From an uncultured Bacteroidales bacterium (GTDB lineage Bacteria > Bacteroidota > Bacteroidia > Bacteroidales > Bacteroidaceae): a stretch of DNA of 64,000 nt. Shown piece after piece: positions 26,381 to 44,426 of the stretch; the first letter of the stretch is position 1; each line of letters starts with the position of its first letter. Under the pieces are notes generated by a model. It searched no databases and was not told the origin of the DNA. It saw nothing but the letters and a program-made list of their open reading frames with translations. The DNA is taken from the NCBI GenBank assembly GCA_902802265.1, contig CADCLN010000023.1:4116-68115 (forward strand). Direction: 5' to 3'. A program made the translations under genes and the position numbers.

Positions 26381-29536
<3,156 letters not shown>

Positions 29537-29631: not shown

Positions 29632-31614
29632 ATGAACAAGAGTAACATTTTATTGACATCCTTTCTTGTGGCTGCAAGCTTGAACCCCGCGTTTGCCGCC
29701 AAGAAAAAGACTGTAACTGAAGAGCCGAAAGACCCCAACGAAATGGTGGCTTACCTCTTCACGTATTTCAATAGCAATGCTCCAGAAGACGAGCAGATCT
29801 GCTATGCCATCAGCGACGACGGCTACAACTACACTCCGCTGAATCATGGCAACCCTGTGATTACGAGCGACACCATTGCTTATACACAGTGTGTGCGCGA
29901 CCCGCACATCTTGCGCTGTGAGGATGGCAAGACATTCTACATGGTTGTGACCGATATGCGTTCTGCTTACGGCTGGTCAAGCAACCGTGGCATGGTGCTG
30001 CTGAAGTCCACCGACCTTATCCATTGGCAACACTCTGCCATCAATTTCCCCACTCGCTACACCAAGGAGTGGAAGAACGTCATCCGTGTGTGGGCACCAG
30101 AAACCATCTACGACCGAAAGGCTGGCAAGTACATGGTGTTCTATTCCCTGCGTACCAGCGACCCAGGGTCATTTGACAAAATTTATTATCAGTATGCCAA
30201 CAAGGACTTTACCGATTTGGAAGGTGAACCCAAGTGGCTCTTCGACGCTGGCAATGCCACGATTGACGGCGACATTGTGTTTAACGATGCAGACCAGATG
30301 TACCACCTCTTCTATAAGCAGGAATCGGGACGCGGCATCTATCAGGCTGTTGCCAAGCAGCTGACTGACCGTTGGCAGATGCTCGGTGGCAATGTGGAGC
30401 AGACAAAGGAAGCTGTGGAAGGTGTCGGCGTGTGCAAAGCCATCGACGGCAAGTCGTGGATTATCATGTACGACTGCTACGGCAACGGACACTACCAGTT
30501 CTGCAAGTCGGAAGACCTGAAGACTTTCAAGTTCGTGCAGAACACCGAGATGAAGGGCAAGTTCACCCCACGTCACGGTACGATTATTCCTATCACCCGT
30601 GCCGAGAAGGAACGTCTCCTGAAGGAGTACGGCAATCACAACCAACCCATTCTGCAAGGTTTCCATGCCGACCCCGAAGTGCTTTATTCCAACAAAACAA
30701 AAAAATACTACATCTACAGTACCACCGACGGCACACCAGGGTGGGGTGGTCACGACTTCAGCGTGTTCTCCAGCACAGACCTCATCAATTGGACAGACGA
30801 AGGCAAGATGCTTGACGTGAAGGGCGACCAGGTGAAGTGGGCTACGGGCAATGCCTGGGCACCCTGCATCGAGGAAGTGAAGCAGAAGGATGGATCCTAC
30901 AAATACTACTTCTATTTCTCTGCTCACAATCCTCAGACCAACCGCAAGGAAATTGGTGTAGCCGTGAGCGACAATCCGACAGGTCCCTTTGTGGATTCGG
31001 GTGCTCCTATCATCACCGATGCTGACCGTCCAGCAGAAGCTCGTGGCGGACAAGCCATCGACGTAGATGTGTTCACCGACCCAAAGACGGGCAAACACTA
31101 CCTCTACTGGGGCAATGGTTTCATGGCTGGTGCAGAACTGAACGACGATATGCTCTCCGTGAAGAAAGAGACCATCACCCACCTCACACCGAAGGGTGGC
31201 AGCTTGCAGACTTGGGCTTTCCGCGAAGGTGCATACGTATTCTATCGCAAAGGCACTTACTACTTCATGTGGTCGGTTGACGACACAGGATCGCCCAACT
31301 ACCACGTTTGCTACGGCACAGCCAAATCTCCGCTGGGACCCATCACCATCGACGAGAACAACTACCTCGTCATCAAGCAGAAGCCCGAAGACAAGATTTA
31401 CGGCACAGCCCACAACTCTGTGCTGCAGATTCCAGGCAAGGACGAATGGTACATTGTCTATCACCGCATCAATAAGAACTTCATCGACCGTCATTTTGCA
31501 CCAGGCATCCACCGCGAAGTCTGCATCGACAAGTTGACTTTTGACAAGAAAGGCAACGTCATTCCTGTCACTCCAACGCTGAATGGTCCTGCACCTTTGG
31601 CTGTAAAAAAATAA
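29632..31614 (+). CDS. Secreted protein with two tandem GH43-like five-bladed propeller domains
   Basis: 660 aa. Domain 1 has YLFTYFNS..YAISDDGYNY..VRDPHILRCEDGKTFYMVVTD..VWAPE. Domain 2 has GFHADPEVLY..YYIYSTTD..AWAPCIEE..EGAYVFYRKGTYYFMWS. Confidence 0.8.
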   Translation: MNKSNILLTSFLVAASLNPAFAAKKKTVTEEPKDPNEMVAYLFTYFNSNAPEDEQICYAISDDGYNYTPLNHGNPVITSDTIAYTQCVRDPHILRCEDGKTFYMVVTDMRSAYGWSSNRGMVLLKSTDLIHWQHSAINFPTRYTKEWKNVIRVWAPETIYDRKAGKYMVFYSLRTSDPGSFDKIYYQYANKDFTDLEGEPKWLFDAGNATIDGDIVFNDADQMYHLFYKQESGRGIYQAVAKQLTDRWQMLGGNVEQTKEAVEGVGVCKAIDGKSWIIMYDCYGNGHYQFCKSEDLKTFKFVQNTEMKGKFTPRHGTIIPITRAEKERLLKEYGNHNQPILQGFHADPEVLYSNKTKKYYIYSTTDGTPGWGGHDFSVFSSTDLINWTDEGKMLDVKGDQVKWATGNAWAPCIEEVKQKDGSYKYYFYFSAHNPQTNRKEIGVAVSDNPTGPFVDSGAPIITDADRPAEARGGQAIDVDVFTDPKTGKHYLYWGNGFMAGAELNDDMLSVKKETITHLTPKGGSLQTWAFREGAYVFYRKGTYYFMWSVDDTGSPNYHVCYGTAKSPLGPITIDENNYLVIKQKPEDKIYGTAHNSVLQIPGKDEWYIVYHRINKNFIDRHFAPGIHREVCIDKLTFDKKGNVIPVTPTLNGPAPLAVKK

Positions 31615-31645
31615 ACCGTAAAACCCTTAACTGTATATATTAAAC

Positions 31646-32278
31646 ATGAAGAAAATAATCTTTCTTGCCATCACCCTGCTGAGCACACTGAATGTCTGTG
31701 CTCAGCGGGAAGAAGGAACCTTCACCATCCAGCCCAAAGTGGGACTGAACATCTCCAACGGTTCCACATCTTCCGATAACCTTACGCGGGTAAGCCCCAG
31801 GTTGGGTTTAGCTGCAGGTGTTGAAGCAGAATACCAGGTTTCCAGAATCTTGAGCCTCTCCGCAGGAGCACTCTATTCCATGCAGGGCATCAAGGGAAAG
31901 ACCACCATCATTTCGTTGGCAACAGCCAGCAAAACAGAATTTGATGAAGTCATCAAACTGGATTACATCACCGTCCCCATCATGGCAAACTTCTATGTGA
32001 CGAAAGGACTTGCCGTGAAGTTTGGTGTGCAGCCGGCCTTTTTGGTACACAACGGCTACAAAGTGTCGTCCTCGCAAAAGGGTGATAGTGGCAAACTGAC
32101 GGATATAGGCTACGAACTCAACACGTTTGATTTCTCCATTCCTGTCGGCATTTCGGGCGAATACAGCAATGTTGTGCTGGATGCCCGCTATAACATTGGT
32201 GTCACGAAGATTACCAAGAATTATGGCGGCAGGAACAGCATCTTCCAATTCACACTGGGCTATAAATTTGAATTGTAA
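31646..32278 (+). CDS. Small outer-membrane beta-barrel protein (porin-family/OmpA-like barrel)
   Basis: 210 aa. It has the signal ..LSTLNVCAQ, alternating beta-strand patterning and a C-terminal FTLGYKFEL. It is a paralog of 43815-44426. Confidence 0.75.
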   Translation: MKKIIFLAITLLSTLNVCAQREEGTFTIQPKVGLNISNGSTSSDNLTRVSPRLGLAAGVEAEYQVSRILSLSAGALYSMQGIKGKTTIISLATASKTEFDEVIKLDYITVPIMANFYVTKGLAVKFGVQPAFLVHNGYKVSSSQKGDSGKLTDIGYELNTFDFSIPVGISGEYSNVVLDARYNIGVTKITKNYGGRNSIFQFTLGYKFEL

Positions 32279-32286
32279 ACATCAGA

Positions 32287-33483
32287 ATGAACATTTCCAT
32301 TAAAAATAGCAGGGATGCAGTCGTGCTCATGCTTGCTGGGCGGTTAGACACATCTGCCGCTCAGCAAACGGCTACTGAAATAAACGCCCTGCTGGAAGAA
32401 CAAGGCGAGATAAAGAAACTGTTGTGCCATGTCGGCGAATTGGAATACATCTCCAGTTCCGGACTGCGCATTCTGCTATCCTTAGCCAAGCAGTACTCCA
32501 ACTTCTCTGTCGTGGAATGTCCACCAGACATCTATCAGGTGTTTGAAATGACAGGCTTCTCGAAGATAATGACCGTGGAGCGTGCGCTGCGCAGATTGTC
32601 TGTGGAGGGCTGTGAAGTCATTGGCATAGGGGGTGTGGGCACAGTCTATCGGCTCGATGACGACACCATTATCAAGGTGTTCCGCGAAGGTACTACTATG
32701 GACGAAGTGAAGCGGGAAATCACCATGTCGAAGGAAGCCTTTGTGCTGGGTATGCCCACAGCCATCTCGTTTGATGTCGTCAGCGTGGGTGAACAGTTTG
32801 GCCTTGTCTATGAACTGCTGGACGCCACTACGCTGAGTGCCTGCCTGAAGCAACATCCTGAGCGGGTAGATGAGTATGCACGAAAGTATGCCGCCTTGTT
32901 CCGCCAGTTGCACGCCATTGAGATTCCGCAGGACAGCACCGTCCCCAGTGCCGCCCATCATGAGCGGGAACAAGTGCTCCACATTCGTCGCTATTTCCCG
33001 CAGGAGAATATTGACACCATGCTGCAAATTCTTGATGCCATCCCAGCAGGCAATCGACTGTTGCACCTTGATTTGCAGTCGAAGAACGCCATGATGCAGG
33101 GCGATGAACTGATGCTGATCGACATGGGTGAAGTGGGTTATGGCCATCCGCTGCTCGACCTGGCCCATGCTTATTCTGCCATGGTGACATTGGTGGGCGA
33201 TTACGAACAGGTGATAGGCGTGCCGCGCGAACTGGGTTTGGAACTCTGGAACCGTGCCATTGGCTATTACTTCGAGGGGCTGCCTGCCGACCTTGTGGCT
33301 CACCGCAAGGAACAGATAGAAGTCGTTTCGTGTGTCCGCAACTTCAGCTGGCTTGCCCTGAGCGACACCTTCCCCGCCGAAGTTATCAACGAGTGCGTCC
33401 AACTTTTTGATGAACGCATCGGTTCCCGTCGCGACTACATCCTTGACGTCTGCAAAACTTTTTCCGACTGGCGACTGGATTGA
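32287..33483 (+). CDS. STAS (anti-sigma-antagonist-like) domain fused to an APH/choline-kinase-type protein-kinase-like domain
   Basis: 398 aa. The STAS part has LAGRLDTSAA..ELEYISSSGLRILL..VFEMTGF. The kinase-like part has GIGGVGTVYRL..IIKVF (Gly loop plus Lys), LLHLDLQSKNAMM (HxDxxxxN), LIDMGE (DxG) and GHPLLDLA. The ATG is 8 nt after the OMP stop. Confidence 0.75.
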   Translation: MNISIKNSRDAVVLMLAGRLDTSAAQQTATEINALLEEQGEIKKLLCHVGELEYISSSGLRILLSLAKQYSNFSVVECPPDIYQVFEMTGFSKIMTVERALRRLSVEGCEVIGIGGVGTVYRLDDDTIIKVFREGTTMDEVKREITMSKEAFVLGMPTAISFDVVSVGEQFGLVYELLDATTLSACLKQHPERVDEYARKYAALFRQLHAIEIPQDSTVPSAAHHEREQVLHIRRYFPQENIDTMLQILDAIPAGNRLLHLDLQSKNAMMQGDELMLIDMGEVGYGHPLLDLAHAYSAMVTLVGDYEQVIGVPRELGLELWNRAIGYYFEGLPADLVAHRKEQIEVVSCVRNFSWLALSDTFPAEVINECVQLFDERIGSRRDYILDVCKTFSDWRLD

Positions 33484-33519: not shown

Positions 33520-34226
33520 AATGCCGTAGGCATTAAATAGGGGTAGCCAGCCATACAGCCATGCCGTTAGGTATGGCGAAATGGCTGGAATGCAGGGATG
33601 AACAACATCATCAGCCTGCCTTTAGGTAGGCGATATATATTATAAAAAAATGGCTAATACCTATACGCAAATCTATATGCACATTGTCTTTGCCGTTGGG
33701 CAGCGCGAATGCTTGATTTTCGATGATTGGGCGGACGAACTGTACTGCTATATGGCTGGTGCTTGCCAAAACCGCAAACATTTTGTCCACGCCATCAATG
33801 GAACTGCTGACCATGTGCATTTGCTTATTGGAATGCATCCCAGTGAATCCGTTTCCGAATTAGTTCAATCGTTGAAATTACAATCTACCAAATGGATAAA
33901 CGAAAAATTCCTGCATGGTGCATTTGGTTGGCAGAGCGGATATGGTGCGTTTTCTTATAGCAAATCGTTGGTTCCCGCTGTTAAAAATTACATAGAACAT
34001 CAACGTGAGCATCATCAGCGTGTTTCGTTTGAATCCGAATGGAAAGATATATTAGAAAAGGCAGGAATCAATTATGAACCAGCATATATGATGAGAGGGT
34101 TTGTGCAGCCCTTATCGCCTTCCTAAAGGCAGGCTGGACCGCGTACATAACTTCCATACCAGCCATTTCGCTGTACCTAACGGCACGGCTGTATGGCTGG
34201 CTACCCCTATCTGATGCCTACGGCAT
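33520..34226 (+). mobile_element. RAYT unit: Y1 transposase gene bracketed by ~105-bp inverted hairpin-containing repeats
   Basis: The left repeat (33520-33627) is the reverse complement of the right repeat (34122-34226). Long identical blocks include cctaaaggcaggctg, ccagccatttcgc, cctaacggca, ggctgtatggctggctacccctat and atgcctacggcat. Each arm carries GTAG followed by the palindrome CCAGCCAT..ATGGCTGG. Confidence 0.8.
33650..34126 (+). CDS. rayT: IS200/IS605-family Y1 (HUH) transposase, REP-associated (RAYT-like)
   Basis: 158 aa. It has YTQIYMHIVFAVGQRE, the HUH motif TADHVHLLIG and the catalytic-Tyr region NYIEHQREHH (YIxxQ). The stop codon lies inside the right inverted repeat. Confidence 0.8.
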   Translation: MANTYTQIYMHIVFAVGQRECLIFDDWADELYCYMAGACQNRKHFVHAINGTADHVHLLIGMHPSESVSELVQSLKLQSTKWINEKFLHGAFGWQSGYGAFSYSKSLVPAVKNYIEHQREHHQRVSFESEWKDILEKAGINYEPAYMMRGFVQPLSPS

Positions 34227-43814: not shown

Positions 43815-44426
43815 ATGAGACGTTTGTTAATTGTCATTTTTGCTTTTTTGAGTACAAAAAATGCTTTTGCTCAGCAAGAAGCAGGAACGTTTACCATTCA
43901 GCCCAAAGTGGGTTTAAATGTTGCCAGTGTTACTGGGACTGTAGATAATGGGGCTAATAAGGGCTTTAGGTTAGGGCTGGCTGCAGGGGTGGAGTTAGAG
44001 TATAAGTTTACCAAAACTATTGGTGTTTCTTTTGGTGCATTGTATTCAATGCAAGGTGTAAATGCAAGTACAACGCTTGAAGGTACAAAGTTGACTGAAA
44101 CAGCAAGACTAGATTACATAAACATTCCAATAATGTTGAATGGATATGTGGCAGAAGGGGTTGTTTTGAAATTTGGTATTCAGCCAGCATTTAGGGTGAA
44201 CGATGGCTATACAATGTCTGCTCAAGGGCAAAGTTTGAATGGTAAATTGTCGGACTTAGGTTTTGAGATTAATTCATTCGATTTCTCTTTCCCTGTTGGT
44301 TTGTCTTTCGAATTTAGCAACGTAATATTAGATGCTCGTTATAATATAGGCATTACAGAGGTTTCTAAAGGTGGTGGAAGGAACAATGTGTTCCAATTTA
44401 CTTTGGGCTATAAATTCAAATTGTAG
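43815..44426 (+). CDS. Small outer-membrane beta-barrel protein (porin family), paralog of 31646-32278
   Basis: 203 aa. It shares blocks with the paralog: GTFTIQPKVGLN, RLGLAAGVE, GALYSMQG, LDARYNIG and FQFTLGYKF. Confidence 0.8.
   Translation: MRRLLIVIFAFLSTKNAFAQQEAGTFTIQPKVGLNVASVTGTVDNGANKGFRLGLAAGVELEYKFTKTIGVSFGALYSMQGVNASTTLEGTKLTETARLDYINIPIMLNGYVAEGVVLKFGIQPAFRVNDGYTMSAQGQSLNGKLSDLGFEINSFDFSFPVGLSFEFSNVILDARYNIGITEVSKGGGRNNVFQFTLGYKFKL

Follow-up and report, generated by a model that had tools for sequence, protein, structure and literature searches.

Partner-switching modules normally pair a STAS-domain protein with a separately encoded GHKL-type kinase (RsbW or SpoIIAB). They are the textbook means of controlling sigma factors, and the route by which they reach non-transcriptional outputs is much less clear. 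Other arrangements are known as well: SypE of Vibrio fischeri is described as combining an RsbW-like kinase domain and a PP2C phosphatase domain in one protein, a bifunctional layout (PMC10120452). Here we analyse a 64,000-nucleotide stretch of DNA from an uncultured Bacteroidales bacterium (contig CADCLN010000023.1), hereafter the window, in which one gene encodes a 398-amino-acid protein that joins a STAS domain to a kinase domain of the aminoglycoside phosphotransferase (APH)/choline-kinase (ChoK) fold. We propose, with moderate confidence, that this protein is an enzyme-type output of a partner-switch pathway, and that the substrate of its kinase domain is probably a small molecule. The parts of the gene on which the argument depends are the following.

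32287-33483, plus strand: gene for the STAS + APH/ChoK-fold kinase fusion, 398 amino acids, stop codon included (open reading frame, Pfam, NCBIfam and AlphaFold2).
32287-32586, plus strand: STAS domain of SpoIIAA/RsbV type, residues 1-100 (PF01740, TIGR00377 and SpoIIAA structures).
32455-32457, plus strand: codon of Ser57, which opens helix alpha2 and is predicted to accept the phosphate (SpoIIAA alignment and conservation).
32599-33480, plus strand: APH/choline-kinase-fold phosphotransferase domain, residues 105-398 (PF01636, TIGR02172 and structure matches).
32674-32676, plus strand: codon of K130, the ATP-anchoring Lys of beta3 (invariant in a 123-sequence alignment).
33064-33087, plus strand: catalytic loop H260-L-D262-L-Q-S-K-N267 (HxDxxxxN), with H260 and N267 invariant and D262 kept in 118 of 120 sequences.
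33121-33123, plus strand: codon of D279, the metal-binding Asp of IDMGE and equivalent of DFG (conserved in 119 of 120).

On sequence comparison, the STAS half is best classed as a SpoIIAA/RsbV-type domain with a conserved serine. Residues 3-100 match the Pfam STAS model PF01740 (E 1e-10; 41.8 bits against a cut-off of 22.6), the anti-sigma-factor antagonist model TIGR00377 is passed (59.4 bits against 53.45), and the SpoIIAA structures 1th8 and 1tid match this part of the protein at E 7e-9 in a phmmer search of PDB chains. YISSSGL aligns with FMDSSGL of SpoIIAA (1th8_B), which places Ser57 on the first Ser after Asp, a residue that we take to be phospho-Ser58 of SpoIIAA in the B. subtilis numbering. 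The Asp of the SpoIIAA DSSG context is itself replaced by Ser (S56). Of 120 diverse family members, 118 retain Ser57, as part of the motif Y54-I-S56-S57-x-G59-L60-R61, and an earlier sequence-only reading of the window, which had picked out ISSSGL as the phosphorylatable-serine region, is borne out on this point. In the AlphaFold2 model the STAS half consists of strands at residues 2-7, 12-20, 45-55, 73-78 and 96-99 and helices at residues 22-37, 57-69 and 80-89, with Ser57 opening the second helix. The more specific equivalog model for spore_II_AA, TIGR02886, gives 40.7 bits, below its cut-off of 114.75. The protein also departs from the canonical single-domain antagonist of about 110 amino acids encoded beside a GHKL kinase, being 398 amino acids long and carrying a fused kinase.

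The kinase half, judged from its motifs and its modelled structure, is a complete and apparently catalytically competent APH/ChoK-fold kinase. PF01636 (APH) matches residues 119-298 (E 1.5e-13; 51.6 bits against a cut-off of 23.2). The best sequence model is TIGR02172 (E 2.8e-33), whose cut-off is not reached (115.6 against 228.2 bits), so that the domain is related to the curated paralogue set and lies outside it. The APH(3') resistance models NF033068 and NF033059 are far from matching (15.5 bits against 205, and 13.7 against 400), and the model for Hanks-type Ser/Thr protein kinases, PF00069, gives 12.8 bits against 31.7 with no stretch passing. A sequence search of the PDB returned no relative of the kinase domain; SteC alone appeared, at E 0.65, and was disregarded. 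Matches to the Pfam families TCAD9, RIO1, EcKL and Bud32 were rejected as lying below cut-off or arising by chance.

The motifs expected of such an enzyme are in order: a Gly loop (GIGGVGTVYR, residues 113-122), K130 within IIKVF, HLDLQSKN (260-267), IDMGE (278-282) and GHPLLD (286-291). Alignments of 120-123 members, at about 30% identity to the query, have K130, E176, H260 and N267 invariant, and at least 90% conservation at Y54, S56, S57, G59, L60, R61, T89, G90, G115, Y121, E144, D262, D279, G286 and P288. The earlier view of this half as a kinase is upheld by the conserved catalytic set (K130, E144, H260, D262, N267 and D279) and by the fold matches. The AlphaFold2 model of the whole protein, built on this family alignment, is scored at pLDDT 96.1 and pTM 0.89, with a linker of about 5-10 residues between the halves. 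Ranking of solved structures against residues 100-395, with Foldseek followed by VIA-align, placed 3dxq_A, of the choline/ethanolamine-kinase family, at the top (Z 18.9, rmsd 4.1 A over 258 residues), then the amicoumacin kinase 6sum (Z 17.8) and APH(3')-Ia, 4gkh_C (Z 17.7, rmsd 4.0 A over 237 residues). APH(2''), capreomycin, macrolide, hygromycin and choline kinases are further fold neighbours. Identity to solved APH-fold structures is only 11-19%, and the nearest solved folds are all small-molecule kinases.

When the STAS and kinase halves were docked as separate chains, they gave an ipSAE of 0.51 against 0.00 for the best control, which the docking tool rates as weak support. Its calibration on 80 solved complexes and 110 mismatched pairs had 58 of the former and 2 of the latter reach the mark, and at scores of 0.60 or less only 7 of the 80 solved complexes passed, together with both passing mismatches. 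Between runs, at least 96% of contacts are the same, and the partner pLDDT is at least 87.

The fusion has many relatives. More than 1,980 database proteins share the STAS + APH architecture among the candidates scored in a word-indexed search, and the 120 best database matches all have it, at lengths of 383-401 amino acids. In the source databases they bear names such as ‘STAS domain-containing protein’, ‘anti-sigma factor antagonist’, ‘phosphotransferase’ and ‘TIGR02172 family’. A HMMER scan with the kinase domain only yielded 364 clusters at 50% identity (E < 1e-30), nearly all of 380-410 amino acids with the kinase beginning at residue 100-110, a starting point which implies that these clusters are STAS-fused as well. 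The reading frame of the fusion is uninterrupted; together with the uniform architecture of the 120 best matches and a DNA contig from an independent gut metagenome (described below), this shows that the fusion did not arise from an assembly error or a frameshift, a possibility that the sequence-only reading had raised.

A scan of species genomes with a single family peptide, EYISSAGLR, located at least 557 relative loci. The relatives belong mostly to the Bacillota (Oscillospiraceae, Lachnospiraceae, Ruminococcus and Erysipelotrichaceae), with others in Coriobacteriales, in Treponema and other Spirochaetes, and in Prevotellaceae, and nearly all come from rumen or gut assemblies. Within its own lineage the family is patchy: it occurs in 12 of 301 genomes of the GTDB family and in 9 of 59 genomes of the genus (the closest at 70% identity), and 200 sampled genomes from the rest of the order gave no match at E <= 1e-20. 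One Ruminococcus genome holds three STAS-kinase paralogues of 405, 395 and 456 amino acids within 5 kb (L069:9956-15185). Kinase domains of the same family also exist without a STAS domain (P0128 and P0133), and such stand-alone forms fit an enzyme with a substrate of its own. Another candidate variant, P0219, which combines APH with acetolactate decarboxylase, was set aside as perhaps a fused gene call. The components belong to known families and databases already annotate the architecture, while the fused family itself appears unstudied: a full-text literature search, with subscription journals outside its coverage, turned up no paper that deals with a STAS-APH fusion or with TIGR02172, in agreement with the earlier statement that no characterised example was known. 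The copy in the window is an ordinary orphan member of this family.

The genes that surround the fusion in relatives connect it to partner switching. We compiled a census of 82 loci, made up of 73 of 80 loci found with the peptide, 8 Bacteroidaceae loci and the window, leaving out eight loci in which the gene caller gave no full-length fusion reading frame. The peptide biases the 80 loci towards fusion members and towards free STAS proteins that carry the exact motif. Neighbours were tagged with hidden Markov models (HMMs) seeded from Pfam-verified neighbours, and immediate neighbours were checked independently against Pfam. An RsbW-like GHKL kinase is present at 51 of the 82 loci, cis-fused in 16 and within four genes in 39. 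PP2C phosphatases of the SpoIIE family co-occur at 40 loci, often fused to the RsbW-like domain; usually the regulator is one protein of 580-950 amino acids with the layout sensor-PP2C-RsbW. If RsbW-like, PP2C and free STAS genes are taken together, 55 loci have at least one of them within four genes (58 when cis fusions are included), as do 33 of the 44 loci with four genes on both sides. Such genes account for 91 of 525 genes (17.3%) within four positions of the fusion and for 4 of 419 (0.95%) further out at the same loci, with peaks at positions -2, -1 and +1. The independent Pfam tally of immediate neighbours gives SpoIIE 12+5, HATPase_c_2 11+7 and STAS 7+8.

Bacteroidaceae relatives follow the same pattern. 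In the Bacteroidaceae loci L023, L025 and L026 (63-71% identity), RsbW and/or dCache-PP2C genes are directly adjacent to the fusion, and in L029 (about 40% identity) they lie within three genes. The fusions of L123 and L124 are also beside RsbW and/or dCache-PP2C genes, and L032 has an RsbW+PP2C gene four positions upstream and a free STAS gene three upstream. Pseudoprevotella muciniphila likewise carries the fusion beside a dCache-PP2C-RsbW gene and a STAS gene. The 16 cis-fused members are triple fusions, STAS-APH-HATPase_c_2, in which the ATP-binding N-box, DxG and GGLG motifs are kept. A free STAS protein of 96-109 amino acids, very like the fused domain, adjoins the fusion at 15 loci, some of them with no RsbW gene within four genes (L035, L057 and L110).

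Because an RsbW-like kinase regularly accompanies the fusion, often as part of one chain with it, the APH-fold domain does not replace RsbW; it is an addition to the canonical kit. The suggestion in the sequence-only reading that a different kinase fold stands in for RsbW is accordingly disfavoured. At one locus (L081:6182-7273) STAS is joined instead to a Cof-type HAD phosphatase (PF08282, E 9e-54), a second type of STAS-enzyme fusion, and the operon there holds this STAS-HAD gene, a free STAS, an RsbW+PP2C protein and a STAS-kinase. This protein and the cis fusions show that STAS is used as a regulatory handle on enzymes. An account in which STAS is the handle and the kinase is the output agrees with the homologues that lack STAS, with the small-molecule kinases as fold neighbours and with the STAS-HAD neighbour. 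Among other variants, P0194 carries an added HD-CE domain. A Y_phosphatase3-type tyrosine phosphatase gene (E 2e-52) lies directly downstream of the STAS-kinase gene in L029 (9209-10081) and directly upstream of it in two other loci.

The pathway that we propose would run as follows. An RsbW-like GHKL serine kinase would phosphorylate or bind the STAS domain at Ser57, and a PP2C phosphatase would reverse the modification. The state of the STAS domain, packed against the kinase domain, would switch the fused kinase on or off, and the kinase would then act on a substrate, probably a small molecule. We infer the identity of the Ser57 kinase, the direction of control and the nature of the substrate, while the architecture, its conservation, the fold, the size and spread of the family, the neighbourhood statistics and the cis fusions are observed directly.

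Candidate regulators for the window copy exist on other contigs of the assembly (2.88 Mb, 85.65% complete). Contig C11 encodes a 734-amino-acid dCache-PP2C-HATPase_c_2 protein followed by a STAS gene, C10 carries a STAS-RsbW-STAS cluster, C35 a REC-PP2C protein and C6 a free STAS. The C11 protein is the best homologue of the fusion-adjacent PP2C proteins of L023 and L026, at 37-41% identity over the full length. The search for cognate PP2C phosphatases that the sequence-only reading had called for has thus produced candidates on C11 and C35, and the window copy is an unlinked orphan.

Several points weigh against this proposal. No partner-switch gene lies within four genes of the window copy, and 24 of the 82 loci are without partner-switch neighbours, many of them on short contigs. 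For this genome, the phosphorylation of Ser57 and the kinase responsible are suggested by genomic association in relatives and by the presence of such genes elsewhere in the assembly, and the putative link to the modules on C10, C11 and C35 is drawn from homology. The gene calls in related loci come from a simple caller of longest ATG-initiated reading frames, and the docking of the two halves is, as said, rated weak. Furthermore, the APH-fold domain could itself be a protein kinase, as are some APH-like folds, e.g., YihE/SrkA.

The immediate surroundings of the gene had suggested another context. It is the last of four plus-strand genes in close succession in the list of open reading frames of the window, and a transposase gene lies downstream.

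26384-29536, plus strand: gene resembling glycoside hydrolase family 2 (GH2), followed by a 95-nucleotide gap before the GH43 gene (open reading frame list).
29632-31614, plus strand: GH43 gene (PF04616, E 2e-76), followed by a 31-nucleotide gap before the next gene.
31646-32278, plus strand: gene for a small outer-membrane beta-barrel protein (OMP) of 210 amino acids, with a signal-peptide-like N-terminus (PF13568, E 4.4e-20; PF13505, E 5e-10).
32279-32286, plus strand: spacer of 8 nucleotides, acatcaga, between the OMP stop codon and the kinase ATG (read directly from the sequence).
33650-34126: gene for an IS200-like Y1 transposase, downstream of the kinase gene (PF01797).

The OMP gene, which ends with TAA at 32276-32278, passes the cut-off of PF13568 (OMP_b-brl_2; 72.9 bits against 27) and falls below that of the TDE1717-family model (60.8 bits against 135). 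The two-gene layout, the 8-nucleotide gap, the fusion and the motifs quoted in the sequence-only reading all held up against the open reading frames and HMMs. The adjacency is genuine in the source organism, as the junction is bridged by the contig from the independent gut metagenome mentioned above (X4, covering 31637-32470 with 2 differences); the stretch is also present in sequencing runs of bovine, goat, sheep and other gut metagenomes. Downstream, the IS200-like/RAYT Y1 element (33520-34226) is polymorphic: an X4 DNA contig joins 33567 to 34189, skipping 621 nucleotides with 6 other letters between, and other contigs of the same run keep the element.

With regard to expression, contigs from three ruminant metatranscriptome runs (X15-X17) cover the OMP and kinase genes at high identity, and one of them (X16, 31366-31776) spans the GH43/OMP junction. 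Contigs from RNA libraries cannot prove transcription, and the libraries may be contaminated with DNA. The OMP/kinase junction at 32278/32287 is crossed by no RNA-library contig from X15-X17, so that co-transcription is neither shown nor excluded. Scans for promoters and terminators gave results at or below the expectation from shuffled sequence.

The sequence-only reading had linked the kinase to the envelope through this OMP, and had named beforehand an unconserved linkage as counting against the idea. No OMP homologue was found beside the kinase at 26 other loci checked: 11 of the GTDB family (wider flanks were retrieved for 9), 8 of the same genus and 7 of Bacillota with a complete nine-gene block. 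The OMP queries were run by tblastn and blastp at the GTDB-family and genus loci. Conversely, OMP homologues occur in 15 other genomes of the genus, and the kinase adjoins none of the 11 other OMP loci fetched there; two genomes (G538 and G502) carry both genes, on different contigs. Neither OMP family is among the 25 commonest Pfam families of immediate neighbours at the 80 mostly Bacillota loci found with the peptide, which were not searched with the OMP itself. Most family members belong to Gram-positive lineages, and Gram-positive relatives such as Bacillota have no outer membrane. The absence of the adjacency at the other loci checked and the relatives that lack an outer membrane mean that OMP and kinase are not a conserved pair. 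The OMP owes its position to chance in the local gene order and is not a functional partner of the kinase, and the pairing that made the window locus look special is a local accident. A second OMP gene, 55% identical to the first, lies on the same strand 11.5 kb downstream (43815-44423 of the window; C23:47930-48538). In sum, the STAS type, the serine and the competent kinase fold of the earlier interpretation stand, and its OMP link and its replacement of RsbW are not supported.

These observations also bear on three other ways to explain the protein. One is a self-contained cis module, in which the APH-fold domain takes the role of RsbW by phosphorylating Ser57, either in the STAS domain to which it is fused or in free STAS paralogues. 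Throughout the family, conservation of the serine goes together with that of the full catalytic set, the short linker and the single compact modelled unit (pTM 0.89) would place them in one body, and the separate-chain docking exceeds its control, though with a weak rating. Free STAS genes adjoin the fusion at 15 loci, and the window copy itself has no RsbW nearby; such a module could apply where a free STAS is present with no RsbW nearby. However, RsbW-like domains with intact ATP motifs are cis-fused in 16 and within four genes in 39 of the 82 loci, which would make a second STAS kinase redundant. The nearest solved folds are all small-molecule kinases, the Pfam protein-kinase model remains far below its cut-off, stand-alone homologues do without STAS, and an operon of this type also has STAS joined to a HAD phosphatase. 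We therefore regard such a module as improbable. We give similarly little credence to the idea that the STAS domain only docks or binds a ligand, with no phospho-switch, and serves to tether the kinase to an RsbW-like protein or to sense a small ligand. Many STAS domains, in SulP transporters and in RsbR/RsbS scaffolds, do act by binding. Here L60, R61 and T89-G90 are kept as strongly as the serine, and the cis-fused RsbW of 16 members makes stable intramolecular binding plausible. Against this, S57 itself is kept in 118 of 120 members, the RsbW-like domains retain their ATP-binding motifs, and the PP2C genes at 40 of 82 loci make sense only if a phospho-serine is turned over.

The remaining explanation would make the protein an ordinary antibiotic- or metabolite-modifying APH enzyme with a decorative or vestigial STAS domain, co-transcribed with the OMP as an envelope or uptake pair. 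It draws on the structure matches to APH(3'), APH(2''), capreomycin, macrolide and amicoumacin kinases, on the start of the kinase gene 8 nucleotides after the OMP gene, and on the mobile RAYT element that adjoins the gene and is absent in some strains. We nevertheless consider it very unlikely, because the APH(3') model is missed by a wide margin (15.5 bits against 205), solved APH structures are only 11-19% identical to it, this genome alone among the loci compared pairs the fusion with an OMP, and the genes that recur beside the fusion elsewhere belong to signalling. Strong constraint on the STAS domain shows that it is not vestigial; the sequence-only reading had itself allowed for a decorative STAS on a known small-molecule kinase, and this constraint, together with the scores of the resistance-enzyme models, speaks against that option. 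Our preferred explanation remains a partner-switch output in which the fused kinase probably acts on a small molecule.

Other neighbours offer a lead as to what that molecule might be. Directly upstream of the fusion, at about 20 of the 82 loci, is a gene for a small RelA/SpoT-type HD_4 hydrolase of about 188 amino acids. The gap between the two genes ranges from -59 to +17 nucleotides (-14 to +17 in all but one case), and in many Bacillota the HD_4 gene is translationally coupled to the STAS-kinase gene. The protein corresponds to the hydrolase part of RelA/SpoT alone, with the HD and ED motifs kept (e.g., L053:2251-2814 and L035:2621-3181). A PHP phosphoesterase gene is found downstream of long forms at 9 loci, and the domain is cis-fused in P0202; its best matches, which are below cut-off, are 3',5'-nucleoside bisphosphate phosphatase and RNase RNM. 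In two Bacteroidaceae relatives (L023 and L024) a true xanthine phosphoribosyltransferase gene lies directly upstream of the fusion. The repeated pairing with families of nucleotide 3'-(pyro)phosphate hydrolases is a lead towards a nucleotide rather than a finding. It is conceivable, though we think it rather doubtful, that the family supplies the kinase of a ‘write/erase’ pair that is under partner-switch control and acts on a phosphorylated small molecule, possibly a purine nucleotide 3'-phosphate. The STAS-gated APH-fold kinase would then be the writer that adds the phosphate, the HD_4 hydrolase the first candidate eraser and the PHP phosphoesterase the second, and the phosphoribosyltransferase would supply the link to purines. 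The window copy would be the kinase alone, with no eraser: neither a small HD_4 nor a PHP partner was found in the searched assembly, where HD_4 occurs only in two long RelA/SpoT-type proteins. If such a pair does exist, it would constitute a new circuit, of second-messenger or alarmone-like type, with a STAS switch in control.

Even apart from this possibility, a STAS domain welded to a small-molecule-type kinase, or to a HAD phosphatase, would let a Ser-phosphorylation switch act directly on metabolism or nucleotide signalling. The family is found in hundreds of rumen and gut species among the Bacillota, Bacteroidaceae and Spirochaetes, with repeated tight links to the small RelA/SpoT-type hydrolase, and its substrate could reveal a new regulated metabolite or messenger in gut anaerobes.

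The fusion resembles three described groups of proteins and differs from each. It shares with the APH/choline-ethanolamine kinase superfamily (PF01636, and the TIGR02172 paralogue family of Fibrobacter) the fold, the Gly loop, K130, the HxDxxxxN motif and the metal-binding Asp. Unlike those enzymes, it has an N-terminal STAS domain and sits in signalling operons, with 11-19% identity and a score below the TIGR02172 cut-off. Its STAS domain is of the same type as those of the Bacillus SpoIIAA/SpoIIAB/SpoIIE and RsbV/RsbW/RsbU modules, with the phospho-serine position conserved, and its relatives are likewise encoded beside RsbW-like kinases and SpoIIE-family PP2C phosphatases. In Bacillus, however, the antagonist is a free single-domain protein, whereas the STAS domain here is covalently joined to an enzyme. 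Neither a sigma factor nor an anti-sigma target is apparent, the fused kinase probably provides the output by catalysis, and the partners are unlinked in this genome. In the SypE/SypA (Vibrio fischeri) and HsbR/HsbA-type systems, a STAS protein with a non-sigma output is the target of a protein that unites RsbW-like kinase and PP2C domains. The layout is similar here, in that the commonest neighbour of the fusion is a single protein with PP2C and HATPase_c_2 domains (707 amino acids in L023, 734 on C11 and 580-950 in many Bacillota). The sensor of the fusion-neighbouring regulators differs, being a dCache or transmembrane domain instead of a receiver, and the STAS target here carries an enzyme domain of its own, often with a second, free STAS protein present.

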